A stretch of 55,571 nt of DNA, the filler included, from Bipalium vagum (taxonomy: Eukaryota): assembly GCA_037834085.1 (NCBI GenBank). It is 3 parts of 3 records of this genome, joined end to end, with 100 filler letters (N's around TTAATTAATTAA, not from the genome) between each part and the next. Parts side by side here need not be neighbours in the genome. Positions count along the whole stretch, not along the records: positions 1 to 16,514 come from JBBMKC010107319.1; 2 more parts are not named here. The stretch is one strand, 5' to 3'. Position numbers and translations under genes: made by a program. Below, piece by piece: positions 1 to 11,600 of the stretch; the stretch's first letter is position 1, and each line of letters opens with the position of its first letter. The notes beneath the pieces were generated by a model. The model saw nothing but the letters and a program-made list of their open reading frames with translations. It searched no databases and was not told the DNA's origin.

Positions 1-599
1 TTACTAGTTTTCTATTAATGGTAACTTGATGTTACCATAATATTATTTTTCTTTAAAATATAATTTATAAGTAAATACATAAAAAATAAATGAATGAATA
101 TAATCACTACTAATACTAATACATGTTAATACTATATCTTATCTTATTTATTAATCCTAATATTCATATATGTCATTATTATACCTTTATTATGCTATTT
201 CATTTCCTTTTGTTTATTATTTATTATTATTATTTAATTATCGTTTTATTTTTAATATTTTATTAATCAGTCAAAATCGATTTTTCTTTTAATACATGTA
301 TTATATCGAATAAAAAGGCAATACAATGCCACGAATAAAAGTAATACAATAATACAACATTAAGGATCACTACAGGATGTCAAATGTTTCAGTTAAAGAA
401 TCACAAATATATAGAAAGGATGTCACATGTTTCAATTCACTAATCACCTGGAGGGATTGGGACTGACGGAACCGATGGTGATGGTTTTGATAGATTGGTT
501 GGATTCGGTCGTAGTCTCCACAACTATACTGACAAAATTTATTTATTTTCTTGTAAAAAATAAATGAAATAACATTTATTTAGACAATTTTTATTACAA

Positions 600-800
600 A
601 AATGAAGTTTTTTTCTCAAATACATTTGGGTACAATTTAATCTTCTTCTTGAATGCAAATAACCTGTTATTGAAAAATCTTTCAGAGTTTCTATAGGTTG
701 CAGGAACAGACAGCACTTAGATACTTTTCTTAAAAATTAAGGAAAATACTTCGTTTTTAATCCATAAAAATTTTCATCAAAATTTCCCGTTGAACAATTT
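600..800 (-). mobile_element. Decayed hAT-superfamily transposase C-terminal (dimerisation domain) fragment
   Basis: Minus strand reads KYLS..LSVPATYRNSERFFNN across frameshifts, matching the hAT dimerisation motif L-S-x-P-A-T-S-x-x-S-E-R-x-F-S. Boundaries approximate. Confidence 0.5.
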
Positions 801-1590
801 CTAAAACCAAATTAATCTCTTTGGTCAAAGGCTATTCTTTCAAGAATATATCAGGTTTCTCAAATTTCCTATTTTTTGCATTAGACTCAATAGATTCTTG
901 TTTTGATGTTTGATATCTAGTGTAAGCTGTTTAATAATAAATTGATCATTTTAAAAAAATCTTGATAATCTTCTTGGTGATGGGCCAGATGCCTTTTAAG
1001 TGCTGTATTGTGCTTGTCTTTAGGTCAAAATGTTATCTATTATATCATTTTTAGAAAATTAAATAAGAAATATATATGTTCGCTTACGGTTAATAAATTG
1101 AAAATCAAGAATAATATTACTGTAATTCTAACTGATTAAGTCTAAGTCATGACCTATATTAAAATTACAATTAGGTCGGTATTTGACCGACTTACATCAT
1201 TGGTGATAATAAATGTAGAAAATAGAATAAAAGAAAAGGATAGATATGATTCTTCGTCAATTCTCATGACAGGAAATATTTGAACATTAAAAATTTGAAT
1301 TTGAAGATGTTTAAAAATTTTAAAAAATCTTAAATGAAATGGTAATATTAAAAAAACGTGTTAGGTTTTTAAAACGCACAAACCCTAAAGATCGTGAGTG
1401 ATAATAATAATAATAAAACTACTAATAATTATTAAAAATGTTCTTTTACTATAATAAAATAATATTTATAATAATAATTTATCAAAATCTTGCAGTCGAG
1501 ATAATGATATATTTATATAAATCAATTAATATTACAAAAATAAAATATTATTATTTATTATAAATTATTATTTTTTTACTAACTTTACTA

Positions 1591-2200
1591 AACTTTATCT
1601 CGGCGTGAAGATAAAGTTAGAATTTATTGGCTATTAGTGAAAATAACCGTCTACGGCTATTTAGAAAGACGCTATCTCCAGAAATTTGACCAAGATATTG
1701 AAGTTGAACTCTGAGAGAGCATTTTCAATTCAATTCAAGTTCGAGGAAAGATTAATGGATGAGCAATTCAAGAAGATTTTATCCATAATTTTTATTTTAT
1801 TGATGACTAAGCAAAAGGATTTCGCAATGGGATCCAGGGATCTTGAGAATCATCAGGTGACCTGCAAATGACCAGATACACACTGTCGCTCCGGGTGAGA
1901 ATATTTTTGATTTTTCTTGTTTTTCATTTCTCTTACATTTTATTCTAATTTTATTTTGTTTTAATTACATTAAAATTTGTTTTAATCATATATTGTTTCA
2001 TTGTTCATTTGTGTTTTATTATTAACTTGATGATTATTAACATTGATTTTTGATTATTGGGAATCGATTATAAACCTTATTCAGACATTTAATCAGTTTT
2101 AATTCTTTGAATTTTCAGAAATTTTATTTTGATTGGTGTTACTGCATGTGATTTTGTTTTAAGAATAATAAAGTTTTATTGTGATTGTTTTGATTCAATT
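1591..2200 (+). repeat. Decayed copy (A) of an LTR-like interspersed repeat, homologous to 15325-15851 in opposite orientation
   Basis: Collinear shared blocks with the reverse complement of 15325-15851: tatctcggcgtg.agata; ctacg.ctat...agacg.ctat; ggattt.gcaa.ggga.ccag.ga.cttg.gaa; tgtcgctc..ggtgaga, then a T-rich tail. Right boundary approximate. Confidence 0.6.
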
Positions 2201-2697
2201 TGGGGTGTAAATAGAGCTAAGGCTTTATTTTGGAAGTTTAAATTTATGTAGCTGTAAAAGTAAAACAAGCACAACATTAGAAAGTGAAAAGTTTGTGGTG
2301 ACAAACTAAAGTTACATATTTCGATTAAGGAAAATAGTAAAAAATGAATTTTCATTTTTAAGGATAAAATAAATTATTTTTAATTTTATTAACAATTACT
2401 TTGAATAAAATATTCATATTTTTTGACTTTTAAAAGTAAATGTTAAATTTATTTTATAAAAAGCCTTAAGTAGCATAAACATTGTTATTTTAAAAAATTC
2501 AAAATGTCTTGTTATTTTTTTTATATTTTTGTTTATAATTGAGAAAGTTAATTATCATATTTAATGATCTGATATCGTTCCTCTATTAGTAAAACTTTAC
2601 AATTGTTCAAAGAGAGAGGTGGAGTTAATTTTAAAAAATTAAAAATCATCAATTATTATAGGAAAATTTTGAAAAATATTTGTTTTTGAATTTAGAA

Positions 2698-5600
2698 ATG
2701 GAAAAATTTATTATTAGAGATCATCCAAATAATCAATTGGATAATACTAAAACTGAAGAACTATTGGATTTTGTTGAGGGAGAAATGACTTTTGCAATAT
2801 TGAAACCTAATATCATAAAGAATAATATAATGGGAAAAGTATTAGACCGGTTGAAAGAAGAACATCTTGATATAGTCAAACAAGAAATTAGGAATCTTAC
2901 AAAACAAGAAGTTTTACAATTATGTCATAATTATGAAAAAAATAAAGATGAAATGGTTCAACAAATGACTTCTGGCAAGTGTTGCATTATTGCTTTGAAA
3001 TCAGAATTTTCCAATCCCGTTTTACATTTGAAAGAATTGACAGATCCAACAGATACGGGAATTCAAAAAAATACCGAGGAAAATAATAAGAGAATGAATG
3101 AGATAAAAGATTTGCAAAATAAATATTCGTCTGCTTCTGGGATTTCATCGATTAATTCAATTAATTTATCTCCCGAGTCATTGTCTAAAAGACTTGATAA
3201 AATAATGGATTCTGATAATAAATCTATAAGTAATCCAGATAATGTCAAATCAATTTTTGAAATTTATGATTTAAGAAATAAAATTAATGAGGCTGAAGCA
3301 AATAATGAAATTATAAAATGTATCTGGATCACGTTTCCTGAATTGGAAATTAAAAAATCCGAAAAAGGCATAAATTTTCAGTCAAAAACAATTCTTAACC
3401 CAGACATTTTAAAATCTATCTCTATACCGGAACAATATCAAAAACCAATTGGTTTATTTCAATCAAATAATGAAACATTAAATGAAATATGGATAAAGTT
3501 TCCTGAATTAATTTTGAAAAAGTCACATAAAGGAAAAGATTCTGAGTTAACAGTCTTAGCGAATCCAGGAAATCTCCAAAAGATCTATAATAATGTTATA
3601 TTTCAAAAAGGAATTATTACAAAAAAATACTATGGTGAATCTTTCAAATCGATTTTTATAAATCCTCCGAAATTGGTTTTCAAAAAAAAAGATGAAGCCA
3701 ATAATTTTGATACTATAGAAATATTTAATTTGGATAGTCTAAGAGCAATTTTTGGAATGCAGGAATTTCAAGAACAACTTCATTCGGCTGAAACAAGAGG
3801 TGAAATTTTAAAATCTATTTGGATAAATTTTCCTGATGATTTGAAGTCAAATGGGTTGGTGGATTATGATTCCATGAAAGCCTTTAATCAAGATAGTTTA
3901 AGAATACTTTGTAAAATGAAAGAATTTCAAAATGAAGTCAGTTCCTCTGAATTACAAATTGGATCTCTAAAATCAATTTACATAATATTTCCTGTTATGA
4001 TGTTTAAAAAGAATATTGACAATAAAAGTGATTCTGAAACAAGTATCACACTTAATTCCAGTAGTTTAAAAGCTATTTACAGAATGGAAGAATTTCAAAA
4101 AGAAGTAAGTTCTCAGGTGGAGTCCTTAAAATCAGTTTCTTTAACTTTTCCTGAATTGATATTCAAAAACTCCGAACAGTCAAAAGAATCTGTAAAATCA
4201 TTTCTAGTAAGTCCAAGTAATTTAAATTCTATATATGGATCACAGGAATTTCAAAGTATAACCAATTCAGTCTTATCACAAGCGGAATCAATAAAATCTA
4301 TACAAATAACGTTACCTCAACTGATACTGAAAAGTGTTGAAAAAACAGAACAAACAGAAATTAAATTTATAATAAACCCAGATTTTTTAAGTAATATATA
4401 TAGGGCATCTGATTTCCAAAAGAAAATCAAATCAGCTGCTTCACGTGGTGAGATATTAAACTCTATTTGTATGACATTTCCTGAAATGGTATTCAAAAAA
4501 GCGGGCAAGTTTAAAGATTCCAATATTAAAGCTGCTCTTAATCCAATTATTCTAAAAACGTTATATGAAACTAAAGAATTTCAAAAGGCAATTTATTCAA
4601 TTGATTCTTTGAAGTCGATATTTAAAACTTTTTCTAATAAAACAAAGACACCTGAGAAAATTAAAAAATCAGATATTAAAACACTAATTAAGGAAAAGAA
4701 AGTTATCAATGAGAATGTGAAATCAGTGTTTATTACATTTCCGAATTTGGTTATCAAAAAATCTGACGGAGTCAAGGAATCGGAAACTGAAATCACTCTT
4801 AACCCAGAAATTTTACGAACAATATACGGAATGAAAGAATTACAAAAAGAAATTCATTCAATTAATTCGAAGGATGAGATCCTGAGATGTGTTTCTATAA
4901 ATTTTCCTACATTGGAATTACATACATCTGATAATTCTAAGAAATCTGAAACTAGAGTTATTGTTAACATGGGAATTCTGAAACAAATTTATGAAATGCA
5001 GGAAATTCAAAAAAGAATGTTATTAGCTAAATCACGTAGAGAGTCTTTCAAATCTATTTACTTGCCTTTTCCTAAATTGGAATTTTATAAATTTGAAAGT
5101 TCCAAAGATTTGATTACTAAAACCATAACTAATCAAAATGGTTTAAGATCAATTTATGGAATACAAGAATTTCAAGAAAAAATTCATTCTATTCAAACAT
5201 CAGATAACGCTGTGAAATCTGTTTTGATAACATTTCATGATGACTCGAACACCACAAGATCTTTGGATTTTGATCATCAACAAGCTATGAAGCAAGACTG
5301 CTTAAAAGAACTTTGCAATATAAAGGAATTTCCTAAAGAAGAAAATTCATTAGAGCCTAAAGTTGAATATTTAAGATCAATTAATGTAAAATTTCCTGAA
5401 ATGTTGTTTAAAAATCCATATAGAAATATTGATTCACGGTCAAAGGTTGCACTTAACTCTAAAAGCTTGAAATTAATTTACAGAATCGAAGAAGTTCAGA
5501 AAGCAATCCATTCTATGGAATCTAAGGGACAATCTTTAGAATCTATTTCGATAACATTTCCGGAATTAGTGATAAAAAAGTCATACCAGAATAAGGAGTA

Positions 5601-8600
5601 TGAAACTAAAATCATATTTAATCCTAATTATTTAACGAGAATTTCCGAAACAATTGAAATCCAAAATGAAATAAATCGGGTTAATTCTAATGGTCAGCAT
5701 TTGAAATCTATTCTTGTAACATTTCCTCAATTGGGTTTCAATATTAACAATTCAGAAAATAAAACAATGCTTAATCCACATATTTTAGAAGACATTTTTG
5801 TGACCAAAGAATTTCAGAAAGAAATGTTTTTAGCTAAGTCACGAGATGAGTCTCTGAAATCGATCTTGATAATTTTTCCTGAGTTAGTTTTCATGAAAGA
5901 TGGAGTGTCTAGTGGTTCGGAAATTAAATTTTATATTAATCCCCGTATCCTAAGATCAGTATACGAAATTCAAGATTATCATAAAATTATTGATATATCT
6001 CTAACAAGTAGTAAATTACTGAAAGCAATGTGGATAACGTTTCCAGAATTAATATCAAGAACAAATAAAGATTCCGAGAAAAAAGTTATTCTTAATCCAG
6101 ATTATTTGAAATCGATTTATGTAATGCAAGATTTCAAAAAATTAATTAGTTCAATGGAAATTCACGGAAAATCATTGAAATCGATGTATATAAATTTTCC
6201 TAAATTGGTTTTAGAGTCGTATGATCTAGAAAAAAATTATGAAGAAATAGCCATACAGAATCCGGATAAATTGCAAACTATTTATGACATGGAAGACTTT
6301 CAAAATGGAATCATTTCAGCAAAATCACGCGGAGAGTCTCTTAAATCCATTTGTGTACATTTTCCGAAATTGGAGTATTGTAAATCTGGCCAATTCAGAA
6401 GTTCAGTTACTAAGCTAATAATTTGTCAAAATAGTTTAAGATTAATTTATGAAATGCAGGAATTTCAAGAAAAGCTTTATTCAGCAAAAGTAAGAGGTGA
6501 AGTTTTAAAATCTGTTTTGATAACATTCCCTCATAGTCCAAATAAAATTAGATCTTTGGATCTTGATCTTAAACAGGCCATTAAGCAAGATAGCTTAAAA
6601 GAAGTTTACAAAATGCAAGAATTCAAAAACGCTATTAATTCTTCTAAATTACAAGCGGAAGATTTACATTCTATTTTAATAACTTTTCCGGAAATGGAGT
6701 TCAAGAAAACTGATGATCTCATTAATTTTGATAACAAAGTTGTGCTCAATCCAGACTATTTAAAAGAAGTATTTAAAATGGAAAAATTTCATGAAAACAT
6801 CATTTTAGCTGAATCTCGAGGTGAAACCATAAAATCTATTTCAATAAACTTTCCTGAAATGATTTTAAAAAGGTTTAATCAAGATCAAAATGATGAGACC
6901 AAAGTTGCTCTTGATCCAGATAGCTTAAGAGCAGTTTATGGCATGAAAAACTTTCAAAACAGAATTAACTCAATTGAAGCAAAAGATGAATCTTTAAAGT
7001 CATATTTGATAAAGCTATCGGAAATTGGGTTCGTAGGGAAAAACAAAAACGGCGATTTTGTGTCTAATGTAATTGTTAATCCGGAAAGTTTACGAACACT
7101 TTATTTAATGCCCGAACTTCGACAGACAATCCATTCAGCTGAATCATGTGGTAAAGCTTTGAAGTCGATTTGGATACTTTTTCCTGAAATGGTTTTTCAG
7201 AAAAATGATGGAGATCAACATTCTGAAAATAAAGTTACATTAGGGCCAGATTTTTTGAAAGCAGTGCTTGAAATGCAAGAATTTCGTAACGGAATTAACT
7301 CAATTGGCTCAAATAATGAGTGTTTAAGATCAATTAATATAACATTTCCACAATTGGTATTGATAAAATCAAACGAGATTAAGGAATATGAAACTAAAGT
7401 TCTACTTAGATCAGAAAATTTACAAAATATTTATGAAATGCAGAAATTTCAAAAAGAAATAAAATCAATTGAATCGAGCGGTGATAGAATTAAGTCAGTT
7501 TTGATAACGCTTCCTGAACTGATAATTGAGGAAGTCACAAAAGGCAAGAATTCTGATATCAAGTTCATACTGAATCCAGACGATTGTAAAAAAATTTACG
7601 ATATGCCAGATTTTCAAAAAGAAATTATCTCAGCTGAATCCCGCTGTGAAACACTAAAAGCCATTTTAATCAATTTTCCCAAAATAAAATTTAAAAACTT
7701 TGATCAAGAAAAAGATATCTTGACTAATTACATTGTTCATCCTGGTAGCTTAAGGAAATTGTACGAAATGGAAGAATTTCAAGAACAAGTTTATTTAGCT
7801 AAATCACGAGGTGAAGTTTTAAAATCGATTTTGATAACTGTTCCTGATGAGCCGAAGTTCAAACGATCTGTGGATCTTAATCTAAAACAAGAAATTAAAT
7901 ACGATAGTTTAAAAGTATACGGAATGCATGAATTTCAGAAGGCAATCAATTCATCGAAATCACTTTTATCTTTATCATATTTTATCCATATAAAATTTCC
8001 AGAAATGAAATTCAAAAAGAATGGTGACCTCAAAGATTCTGATACTAAAGTCATTCTTAATTCGGATTGCTTGAAAGAAATATACAAACTACCAGAGTTT
8101 CAAAATATGATTAATGTAGATTCATCTGTTAACGATTCTTCTAAATCTGTTTTGATAACCTTTCCTGAATTATCAATAAAAATGACTAACCAGGTTAATG
8201 ATTCTGATAAAATAATAACCTTTAATCCAAATAATTTGAGAAAAATTTCCGGATTTCAGGAATTAATAAAAGCTTTTCTTTCAGCTGAATCAAACGGAGA
8301 ATCTTTCAAATCAATTAACATAAAATTTCCTAAATTAATAATCACAAAAACCGAAGGATCTAAAGATTACGAAACTACGGTTGTTCTTAATCTGGATAGC
8401 ATAAGATCAATATATGAATCAGATGAATTTGAAAATTTGTCACTTGAATCGTTAAAATCAATTTCCATAAGATTTCCTGAATTGATTATAAAAAAGAGTA
8501 ATAAAGAAAAGTCAGTAGAGAAAAGAATTATTCTTAATCCAGAAAGCTTAGAGAAAATTTACGAATTACAAGAATTTCATGAAAAAATCAATTCACCTGA

Positions 8601-11600
8601 GTCTAGAGGTCAACTTTTGAAATCAATTTGTGTGAATTTTCCTGAACTGGTTATTAACTTTTCTGCCGATGACAAGGAAAGTGAAATTAAAATAATTCTT
8701 AGTTCAGAGGAGTTTACAGCCATATACGGAATGCCAGAATTTCAAAAGGAAATTTTTTTTGTGGAATTAAAGGGTGAGTCTTTGGAATCAGTTTCTGTAA
8801 GTTTTCCTACATTGATATTGCAAACATCTAATTCCAAAAAGGAGTTTGAAACTAAAGTAATACGTAACATGGGGATTTTGAAACAAATCTATGAAATGCA
8901 TGAATTACGAAAAGGACTTTTATCAGCAAAATCACGTGGAGAGTCTCTCAAATGTATTTTAGTGCCCTTTCCAATTTTGGAGTTCTATGAATCTGATAGA
9001 TCCAAAGGTTCGATTACTAAAGCCATAACTAGTCAATGTAGTTTAAGATCAATTTACAAAATGCAGGAATTTCAAGAAAAAAGTTTTTCAGTTGAAACCC
9101 AGGGTAAAGCTTTAAAATATACTTTGATTACAAATCAGGATAATTTAAAGTTTAAGGAACCTTTGAATTCTGATCTGAACAAATTAATTAGTGAAGATAG
9201 TTTAAAAATAATTTGCAAAATAAATGAATTTCAAAAAGATATGAATTCTTCTAGACTTCCTATCGAATCTGTAAAATCAATTATAATTACGTTTCCTGAA
9301 ATGATTTTTAAAAATATTGATACAAAAGCTGAATCCGAGACAAAGGTCATACTTAATTCTAATATCTTAAAGGTCATTTGTGGAATACCAGAATTTCAAA
9401 GCTTAGTGGACTCAATTGAATCACGGGGTGGAAAGCTAAAATCAATTTCTATAACGTTTCCAGAATTGGTGATAAAAAAGTCTAAAGAATTTGAAACTGA
9501 AATCACAATTAGTCCAGATGTTTTAAGTACAATTTGCGAAAATCAAGATTTTCAAAGTATTGTTAATTTAATTGAATCTCAGAGTGAGTGCCTAAAATCA
9601 ATTATGGTAAGGTTTCCTGAATTGATAATCAAAAAGTCCAATCAACGCAAGGAAGAAACTGAAACTAAAGTTATTCTTAACCCAAATAGTTTCAAAAATA
9701 TTTATGCATTGCAAGATTTTCGAAATGAAATTAATACAATTGAATCTGAAGTTGAATGTTTGAAATCATTTTTGATAAAGTTTCCTAAAATGAGTTTTAA
9801 CAAATTTAATCTTGAGAAGAGTGAAAATGCAAAGGTCATAATTAATCCAAGTACTTTGACAGGCATTTATAAATCAAAAGAGTTCCAAAAAACATTAATT
9901 TCAATCCAATCTAACAACGGGTCCTTAAAATCAACTTTATTAACTTTTCCTGTCATAAAGTTAAAAAAGTTGAAACAATCAAAGGATTCTGAATTAAAAA
10001 TCATTATTAACCCAAATAATTTAAAAGAACTTTATGAAATGAACGAATTGCAGAAAGAAAAATTTTTGATAGAATTTCGGGGTGAATCTATAAAATCCAT
10101 ATTGGTAAATTTTCCTACAATAACGTTGAAAAAAACAGATCAATCAAACGACTCTGAAACCAAAGCTATCCTTAATGCACAAAGCTTGAAAAAAATCTAT
10201 GAAATGCAAACTTTTCAAAAGGGAATTTATTCTGCTGAATTGCGCGGTGAGTTTCTTAAATCAATTATTATTAATTTACCAAAATTGATGTACAAAAATA
10301 ATAATAACACAGATAGCTCTCTAATTACAAATATAATTAAACTGAGAAGTTTAAAATCTATTTACGAAATGCAAGAATTTCAAGAAAAAATTATTTCAGC
10401 TGAATTAAGTGGTGAAACCTTGGACTTTGTTTTGATAACTGTTCCTGGAAATCAGGATTACATGGGATCTTTGGATAGTAAGGAAGATAGCTTAAAAGGA
10501 GCTTGCAAAATTAAAGAATTTCAAAAGATAATGAATTCATTTGAATCAAAAAATGGACAATTTGAATCTATCAATGTATCTTTCCCTGAATTAGTTTTCA
10601 AAAAATCTAACTATGAAAATGATACCGAGACTAAAGTTTCACTTAATCCAAATAGTTTAAGAGAAATTTATGGTATGCAGGTATTTCAAAACGCAATTAT
10701 TTCATCCGAAAATGGAGGAGAATCTTTAAAATCTCTTTGTATAACGTTTCCGGAAATTATTCTAAAGAAATCAAACAATGGTAAAGAATCTGAGTCCAGA
10801 ATTTTACTAAACCCAGAAAGTATAAAAGATATTTATGAATTACAAGAATTTCAAGAAGCAATTTATTTAGCAGAGGCAGAAAATATGTCCATAAAATCAA
10901 TCTATATAAATTATCCTCAACTTACTTATAAGAAGACCAATGACTTCAGCAATCAGCAGAAAATTATTATTTTGAATCCAGATAGCCTAAGATCAATTTA
11001 TGAAATACAAGATTATCATAATCAAATTGACTTGGCCAAATCTCGTGGCGAATCCTTAAAATCAATAAATTTTAATTTTCCTAAGCTTGAGTTTAAAAAG
11101 ATTGATCAATCTGTGTACCCTGAATCTACGGGGATGCAAATATCAGATAATTTAAGACCAGTTTTTTTAATGCAGAGTTTACCAAATGGAATTCAGTCAG
11201 CTGATTCTCGCAGCGAGGCTCTCAAATCAATAAACCTTACTTTTCCTGATTTGGTGGTTAAAAAAGAGAATCAATCCATAGAATCTGAGACTACAGTTAT
11301 TCTGATCCCAGAAACAATATATCCTGATGAGAAAAATTCGTTTGTTAATCAATTCAAGACCGCTGGTCTTAAGATTGTCAATCAGGTCAATATACCAATC
11401 TTAAAAAATGATATAAATTTTTTATATTCAGATTTGAGCTTTAAAAAAAATGTGAGTGATGAAAAAATTAAAGAGCTTCAAAATTCTAATTTTGATATTT
11501 TCATGGTCAAAGGAAATAATTGTGTAAAAATAGTAAATTGTATGTTAGAAGTAAATTTTCCAGAAAGCATAAATAGAGAGTACAGCAAATTACTTGACAG

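Follow-up and report, generated by a model that had tools for sequence, protein, structure and literature searches.

A putative NME8-like retrocopy in Bipalium vagum with 49 tandem units very probably derived from an NDK domain junction, and an eight-unit period that is probably mainly historical

How does a fragment of an enzyme become a long tandem array, and must the higher-order period of such an array be held in place by selection? Both questions are raised by a gene in the window analysed here, a stretch of 55,571 nucleotides (nt), filler included, from the genome assembly of the animal Bipalium vagum (GCA_037834085.1), of which positions 1-16514 are one contig (C107319; GC 0.27). On its plus strand, to which all coordinates below refer, a single-exon open reading frame (ORF) of 3273 amino acids (aa; 2698..12519) encodes 49 tandem units set between the parts of an NME8-type protein that lacks the thioredoxin domain. 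We regard it as moderately probable that this gene is an intronless retrocopy of an NME8-like gene in which a piece from the junction of two NDK domains was amplified to 49 units, that the eight-unit period of the array is a fossil of block duplication, and that the product is an enzyme-dead, elongated structural protein.

The family assignment is supported by Pfam NDK (E 3.5e-43), which matches three stretches of the ORF collinear with TXNDC3, NDK1 being split by the array and NDK2 being degenerate; bird TXNDC3 sequences are the best named matches and indeed both of the two matches at E<=1e-10 among 2571 candidates (E 8.9e-47 and 5.2e-46). The N-terminal two thirds of NDK1 (2779..3078; NDK profile positions 1-93 at 2782-3060) share 54% identity with a sister gene, described below, over 102 codons and are followed by a degenerate unit 0 (3079..3234), probably the original end of NDK1, whose assignment as a unit is putative and goes back to a weak repeat-profile match (8.7 bits, aa 138-164). 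Beyond the array (3235..11307) lie the degenerate NDK2 (11308..11682), whose first strand is the end of unit 49 and which can be aligned to NDK domain 2 of bird TXNDC3 and to the sister, then NDK3 (11683..12081) and a C-terminal tail (12082..12519) common to the sister (tblastn 52-76% identity to its exons on C255874). The non-NDK Pfam matches in the ORF were set aside as summed repeat noise.

The origin of the unit can be read from that sister, a spliced gene with a thioredoxin and three NDK domains in the same genome, the assembly of which is fragmented (441 Mb) and gave 22 NDK matches among 32 candidates in a search for the family. The sister is spread over four contigs, C258523 (thioredoxin exons and the start of NDK1), C191149 (a 75-nt exon) and C218908 and C255874 (NDK2 and NDK3 exons), the first two of which overlap by 244 nt, and its joined exons stay open for 529 codons. 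With 45-55% identity, and 45-51% on one of its contigs taken singly, it is closest to the window gene, compared with 22-45% for short pieces of other NDK genes. It holds the unit once, at exactly 55 aa, cut by two introns and bounded by a Pro-Glu near the NDK1 end and a Pro-Glu after the first strand of NDK2; the 75-nt exon was the sole match outside the array among 38 in a search with one unit (E 0.0011), and repeat-query searches of the genome found only the window array and this single exon. The majority residue of the array units, which are mostly 55 aa (165 nt) and comprise the NDK1 end, the linker and the NDK2 first strand, equals that of the sister unit at 29 of the 55 columns, single units being 27-49% (mean 36%) identical to it, and units 48 and 49 group with the sister unit at a support of 96/91. 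Unit 49 furthermore matches a named bird TXNDC3 along the NDK1 end, the linker and the first strand of NDK2, and the only NDK match of the repeat profile in the PDB is the same segment of NME5, albeit a weak one (E 1.7). The unit has thus very probably been derived from the junction between the NDK1 end and the NDK2 first strand in an NME8-like retrocopy. The sister is itself a divergent NME8, with a W-G-G-P-C thioredoxin motif, a degenerate NDK2, a Tyr for the His of NDK3 and the C-terminal tail shared with the retrocopy. The overlap between the end of C258523 and positions 1-244 of C191149 contains a few mismatches and a TTA repeat of different length, probably representing two alleles; the 10.6-kb unitig that carries the retrocopy is without variant.

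The second line of evidence concerns introns. In the compared region the sister has eight GT-AG introns, six outside the unit and two inside, and the window gene is without all eight, since it reads across the six outside the array and the two in-unit introns are missing in all 49 copies. Because the eight sister introns are absent and the sister unit is single, the window gene would be a retrocopy in which the array grew afterwards, and judged from gene structure retrocopy first and amplification after is the simplest and most likely order. None of the sister's three thioredoxin exons is matched in the 16.5-kb contig, the best E being 0.084. Stops are found in frame 12 codons upstream of the ATG, and the start Met falls opposite a Met that directly follows the thioredoxin domain of the sister, an alignment that is not significant (39 of 200 shuffles as high).

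As to the array itself, an iterated profile delineated 52 stretches, namely 49 full units (numbered 1-49; aa 180-2870), a partial unit within unit 9, the degenerate unit that precedes the array and a stretch at the NDK3 end. Thirty-four of the 49 full units are 55 aa long, and unit 9 (4543..4803) reaches 87 aa by virtue of the extra 32-aa partial unit that a sequence-only reading of this DNA had placed in the first interval. That reading had proposed an eight-unit super-repeat marked by an odd unit, and its markers QDSL, QDCL, QDSL, YDSL, EDSL and EDSL are indeed found at nt 3889, 5293, 6586, 7900, 9193 and 10483, spaced by 1404, 1293, 1314, 1293 and 1290 nt, as is the segment NMGILKQIYEM, which occurs twice with its ATG at 4969 and 8869, 3900 nt apart. 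The odd units, which it had counted as 5, 14, 22, 30, 38 and 46, are units 4 (3730..3888), 12 (5134..5292), 20 (6427..6585), 28 (7741..7899), 36 (9034..9192) and 44 (10342..10482) here, and recur exactly eight apart in five of five intervals, each holding eight full units and one of them the added partial unit; the period is therefore real. All six form one clade in the unit tree (support 100/96). They are not short units lacking a segment, being 53 aa against 55 (the last 47) with the tail replaced rather than missing. The motif SLRxIYxMQEFQE(K/Q), said to precede each of them, fits strictly in two of six cases, the other four having one or two changes. The likeness which that reading described between units 5-6 and 38-39 of its own count holds for unit 5 as numbered here, which is closest to unit 37 (0.709 in nt), but not for unit 6, which is tied between units 14 (0.641) and 38 (0.639).

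Units at the same position modulo 8 are 0.397 identical as compared with 0.332 for other pairs, a difference reached by none of 2000 shuffles of unit order, and with the odd tail left out the values are 0.429 and 0.376 (again 0 of 2000). Unit identity is likewise 0.39-0.42 at lags 8, 16, 24 and 32 against 0.31-0.36 at other lags, DNA similarity between units peaks at lags 8, 16, 24, 32 and 40, and 23 of the 49 units have their closest relative in register. The signal rests on positions 3, 4 and 5 and weakly on 6: identity within a position is 0.42-0.47 at positions 3-6 and 0.335-0.366 at positions 7, 0, 1 and 2, and once positions 3-5 are removed, the same-position excess is down to 0.014 (26 of 2000 shuffles) and, when core columns are compared, to 0.011 (112 of 2000). 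The expected clustering modulo 8 is seen in part, since in the tree of units, built from 55 columns only, positions 3, 4 and 5 require just 1, 1 and 2 changes, which none of 500 shuffles equalled, whereas the other five require 5-6 each; over all positions of this tree 24 changes are needed against 35.1 when shuffled (0 of 200 as low). Every unit that has columns 4, 7, 13, 32 and 39 carries a hydrophobic residue there. The rare motif YEIQDYH is found in both unit 17 (5941-6096) and unit 48 (10978-11142), a lag of 31 and so one unit off the eight-unit register, which hints at a single-unit shift near the array end.

Is this period then maintained or inherited? The six octamer blocks are 0.57-0.61 alike in nt and nearly equidistant, blocks 2 and 5 standing out at 0.656 (support 98/96), and the excess of this pair sits in a five-unit tract, units 10-14 (4804..5622) against units 34-38 (8704..9513), where identity at lag 24 is 0.67, 0.81, 0.65, 0.67 and 0.69 (range 0.65-0.81) compared with an array mean of 0.555. 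The closest pair of blocks moreover changes with position along the octamer. Near-equidistant blocks and a shifting closest pair bear out the amplification of an octamer with a mosaic history, but the unequal crossover invoked by the sequence-only reading is indistinguishable from conversion. A clean doubling of 24 units (blocks 1-4, 2-5 and 3-6) is not rejected by the approximately unbiased (AU) test (0.54), but has no advantage over other trees in which blocks 2 and 5 are paired. Synonymous third positions are also closer in register (0.635 against 0.613; 11 of 1000 shuffles), and this signal lies wholly in positions 3-5 (0 of 1000 shuffles), the other positions giving 725 of 1000. Since synonymous sites carry the same signal, shared ancestry alone would explain the position-specific residues, selection on these residues besides ancestry being possible; and at a DNA similarity between units of about 55%, exchange in register would keep the period without selection for it. 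We therefore think that the period is probably in the main historical, a fossil of block duplication with patchy homogenisation.

The alternative that survives best is that the period is under selection. On this view eight units would cover a set length of a regularly repeating partner, and the odd unit together with those beside it would bind that partner or act as a hinge, as in nebulin, whose seven-unit period matches a periodic partner; a 24-nm dynein repeat, for example, would need about 3 nm per unit. In its favour, all five intervals hold eight full units even though the blocks are old (0.57-0.66 in nt), residues specific to the position are retained at positions 3-5 whereas units at the other five look interchangeable, a break is predicted at the odd unit, and NME8 is an outer dynein arm subunit (PMC8754002). 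However, the length of the octamer varies between 430 and 468 aa, the signal recurs at synonymous sites of positions 3-5 and is absent from those of the remaining positions, as shared ancestry predicts, and the thioredoxin domain, homologous to the dynein-binding LC3 (PMC10886578), has no match in the contig, so that we find a selected period unlikely. The missing thioredoxin domain and the 430-468 aa period in particular argue against a precise dynein ruler. Nebulin super-repeats are similar insofar as a fixed number of units was duplicated as a block and similarity is position-specific (PMC1553488 and PMC7754682), but their seven-unit period matches a repeated exon block, whereas the window array is one exon, lineage-restricted as far as searched, and clusters at three of eight positions. 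Repeats usually grow by blocks of several domains, and 30% of long repeats lie within one exon (PMC1553488); as block-wise expansion is the usual mode, the super-repeat is ordinary in kind.

AlphaFold models were built from alignments of the protein's own units, one of three units (26 rows; mean predicted local distance difference test (pLDDT) score 71.6, predicted template modelling (pTM) score 0.48) and one of five (20 rows; 56.1 and 0.47), and both give the order helix-helix-strand-strand-strand for each regular unit. The NDK segment that matches the unit is in contrast a helix, the His strand and a helix. On a helix and beta propensity scale, columns 13-19 favour helix more than the sister does in 46 of 49 units and columns 28-34 less so in 46 of 49, and beta-favouring residues at columns 29-34 rise from 0.33 in the sister to 0.59 in the units. 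In the five-unit model the odd unit loses its beta-hairpin and about 22 residues become disordered (pLDDT below 50 at model residues 145-166, the tail of unit 20), so that the hinge every eight units that had been suggested earlier gains weak support from a model of low confidence (mean pLDDT 56). That the units are refolded and arranged as beads on a string is by these models a proposition with a little less than an even chance of holding, and the fold switch is best treated as a lead rather than a result.

It could likewise be that the unit arose from the same junction but stays locally NDK-like, its NDK2 first strand pairing to the His strand of NDK1 and packing against the helix, or else is folded only in part, the switch being a modelling artefact. 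The ungapped collinearity with the NDK1 end, the low pTM of the models and the fact that columns 27, 30, 31 and 34 also fit one face of a helix speak for this, but the same switched order came from two modelling jobs, in 46 of 49 units the propensities have moved both ways as predicted, and no NDK is among the listed fold-search matches of either model, which is weak evidence; we consider it quite improbable. Foldseek with both unit models gave no match at E<=0.001, and VIA fold searches gave best Z values of 4.2 and 5.2 over about 50 residues, to common arrangements only.

Starting from the spliced sister, with its single unit cut by two introns, and the window gene that is without the eight introns, an order of events can be proposed in which an mRNA of the sister type gave rise to a retrocopy and its thioredoxin part disappeared. 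The unit, freed of its introns, would have become a continuous in-frame segment of 165 nt, and the short DNA match coding Pro-Glu that is found at both its ends is a plausible seed of the first tandem duplication. Units would then have multiplied and diverged, one of them gaining the odd tail, an eight-unit block would have been copied about six times, and later in-register exchange may have homogenised patches such as units 10-14 with 34-38. The ORF was conserved as protein, its units being predicted to form two helices and three strands, switched from the strand-then-helix order of NDK, with the odd unit as a flexible break, and by family the product may serve as a scaffold in sperm or ciliated cells. 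Alternatively the first repeats may have been made during reverse transcription, by template switching or from a rolling exon circle, and not by later DNA duplication. The unit start within 8 nt of a sister exon boundary and the short match common to the unit ends would agree with this, but the unit ends within an exon, where neither the sister nor the window gene has a GT donor, for which reason it is not a back-spliced circle, and the octamer structure needs later rounds anyway; such an origin appears very improbable.

That the ORF is kept as a protein is indicated by its codons. Outside the array the window gene and the sister are 55% identical over 470 codons, with a ratio of nonsynonymous to synonymous substitution (dN/dS) of 0.20 (NG86), 0.28 (LWL85) or 0.11 (maximum likelihood), and between units the NG86 ratio is 0.24-0.53 near saturation. 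In a neutral, AT-biased simulation the frames remained open in 19 of 500 runs at 0.005 and in none of 500 at 0.01 substitutions per site, and the closest five-unit tracts differ at a dS of about 0.6. By these comparisons the window ORF is under purifying selection and kept as protein. One unitig of 10,601 nt covers the ORF at a depth of 26.3 with 0 differences, the sister having a depth of 24.4; it is not independent support for the assembly, since the sequencing run may itself be the source of the assembly, but with units only about 55% alike in DNA a collapse is not expected, and as far as testable the array is not an assembly collapse. A dead processed pseudogene or assembly artefact, for which one might cite the absence of a thioredoxin domain and catalytic His, the degenerate unit 0 that leaves NDK1 incomplete and the failure to find a homologue, is hardly credible in view of a 9.8-kb open frame in which all 15 of 49 off-length units stay in frame, dN/dS well below 1, units about 55% alike in DNA and one unitig spanning the ORF.

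A possible role of the protein is suggested by its family. The catalytic His motif of nucleoside diphosphate (NDP) kinases is N-x-x-H-G-S. The His is Tyr in NDK3 of both the window gene and the sister and is kept in five of the 49 units and in NDK1 of the sister; given the catalytic role of this His (PMC10886578), the product is by its sequence likely to be without kinase activity. NME8, the orthologue of sea urchin outer-arm IC1, may bind microtubules (PMC8754002), it is testis- and cilia-associated, human NME8 and NME9 being reported to be without NDP kinase activity (PMC13256974), and it typically has a thioredoxin and two or three NDK domains (PMC2978717). The window gene resembles NME8/TXNDC3/Sptrx-2/sea urchin IC1 in its NDK1-NDK2-NDK3 order, and the sister does so in its thioredoxin exons, but the window gene differs by having neither thioredoxin nor introns and by junction repeats that occupy 2,690 residues between NDK1 and NDK2, of which no comparable case was found in the available parts of the NME8-family literature. 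An enzyme-dead, jointed scaffold in sperm or ciliated cells is by this family analogy a tentative proposal. Sptrx-1/TXNDC2 offers a partial parallel, since it has an N-terminal repeat region and a retrogene-like origin, but its repeats are short and are not known to derive from an enzyme domain. It is a testis thioredoxin-family protein tied to sperm tail assembly (PMC11276731), but one in which thioredoxin is kept and no NDK domain is present.

Several observations weigh against the reading preferred here. Of the contig joins of the sister only the first is an overlap, the second passing through a high-copy repeat and the third following from order and phase, so that repeats in an unassembled part of the sister are possible; in addition, one sister intron donor was picked among alternatives. 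No poly(A) remnant or target-site duplication is evident in the flanks, which are AT-rich and old, and the flanks show no significant similarity to the sister, 39, 63 and 71 of 200 shuffles reaching the same level. Had whole blocks alone been duplicated, the near absence of in-register excess at positions 7, 0, 1 and 2 (0.335-0.366 against 0.333-0.344) would be left unexplained, and extra exchange or rate differences must be assumed for these four. The dS values are near saturation, dN/dS against the sister mixes two lineages, and the gene is known from genomic DNA alone. Finally, the propensity shift is one comparison among related, non-independent units in a genome whose AT bias favours Ile, and both models have a pTM below 0.5 and were built on the protein's own units, the other models being poorer (43.8-64.1 and 38.5-50.4).

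Searches for relatives of the repeat were made in sequence libraries that may hold few relatives of this animal, which limits all the negatives that follow. No repeat homologue was found at E<=0.001 among 4282 candidates of 1800-5728 aa, and a three-unit profile run against 1.84 billion representatives gave one match (E 3.6e-5), rejected by its sequence as an unrelated low-complexity repeat protein. Six units gave no usable match in the Atlas and the C-terminus only NDK clusters, a weak search for longer relatives of the C-terminus found none among 3315 candidates, and no NDK-junction repeat or NME8 retrocopy with such an array was found in the literature searched, subscription papers being mostly outside that search. 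In the genome itself there are at least two more NME8-type genes, with exons on C145944 and on C101127, C220848 and C242293; the exons on C145944 have 55-57% GC and those on the others about 30%, so that C145944 may belong to a second organism present in the assembly or may carry a GC-rich paralogue. By eye, exons of an ankyrin-repeat-like gene lie downstream of the sister on the minus strand of C255874 (about 5880-6890 and 7520-7820), and an exon of a probable major facilitator-type membrane transporter lies at about 2200-2580 of C191149, beyond the contact with the repeat, for which reason this contig may be mis-joined there. Downstream of the ORF the window has short frames at about 13050-13310, which we take to resemble a decayed mariner-type transposase.

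A super-repeat is in itself of an already known kind, and the main result is the traceable origin of the unit, of which the sequence-only reading had made no mention. Tetratricopeptide repeats (TPR) derived from an RPS20-like hairpin (PMC5074805) and beta-propellers derived from single blades (PMC9218822) are alike in that a subdomain piece was amplified and then differentiated, but there the fragment keeps its structure, and the link of TPR to its parent is ancient and was tested by design. In the window array, by comparison, parent and array share one genome, the fragment reaches across two domains and two lost introns, and the secondary structure is predicted to change. It is doubtful, if conceivable, that retroposition, by taking out two introns, opened a domain-straddling NDK fragment to in-frame amplification, that strand and helix were swapped in it to give a new repeat fold, and that the jointed rod of 3,300 residues, hinged at every eighth unit, came to serve as a periodic structural component of sperm or cilia. 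New repeat folds from pieces of domains have mostly been argued from remote similarity or by design, whereas here the parent, the break points, the order of events with intron loss first, and 49 natural variants can all be read. The array also lets one ask whether selection is needed at all for a super-repeat to have its period, and if the fold switch is true, the rise of a repeat fold from a scrap of an enzyme could be traced here with the parent still in the genome.

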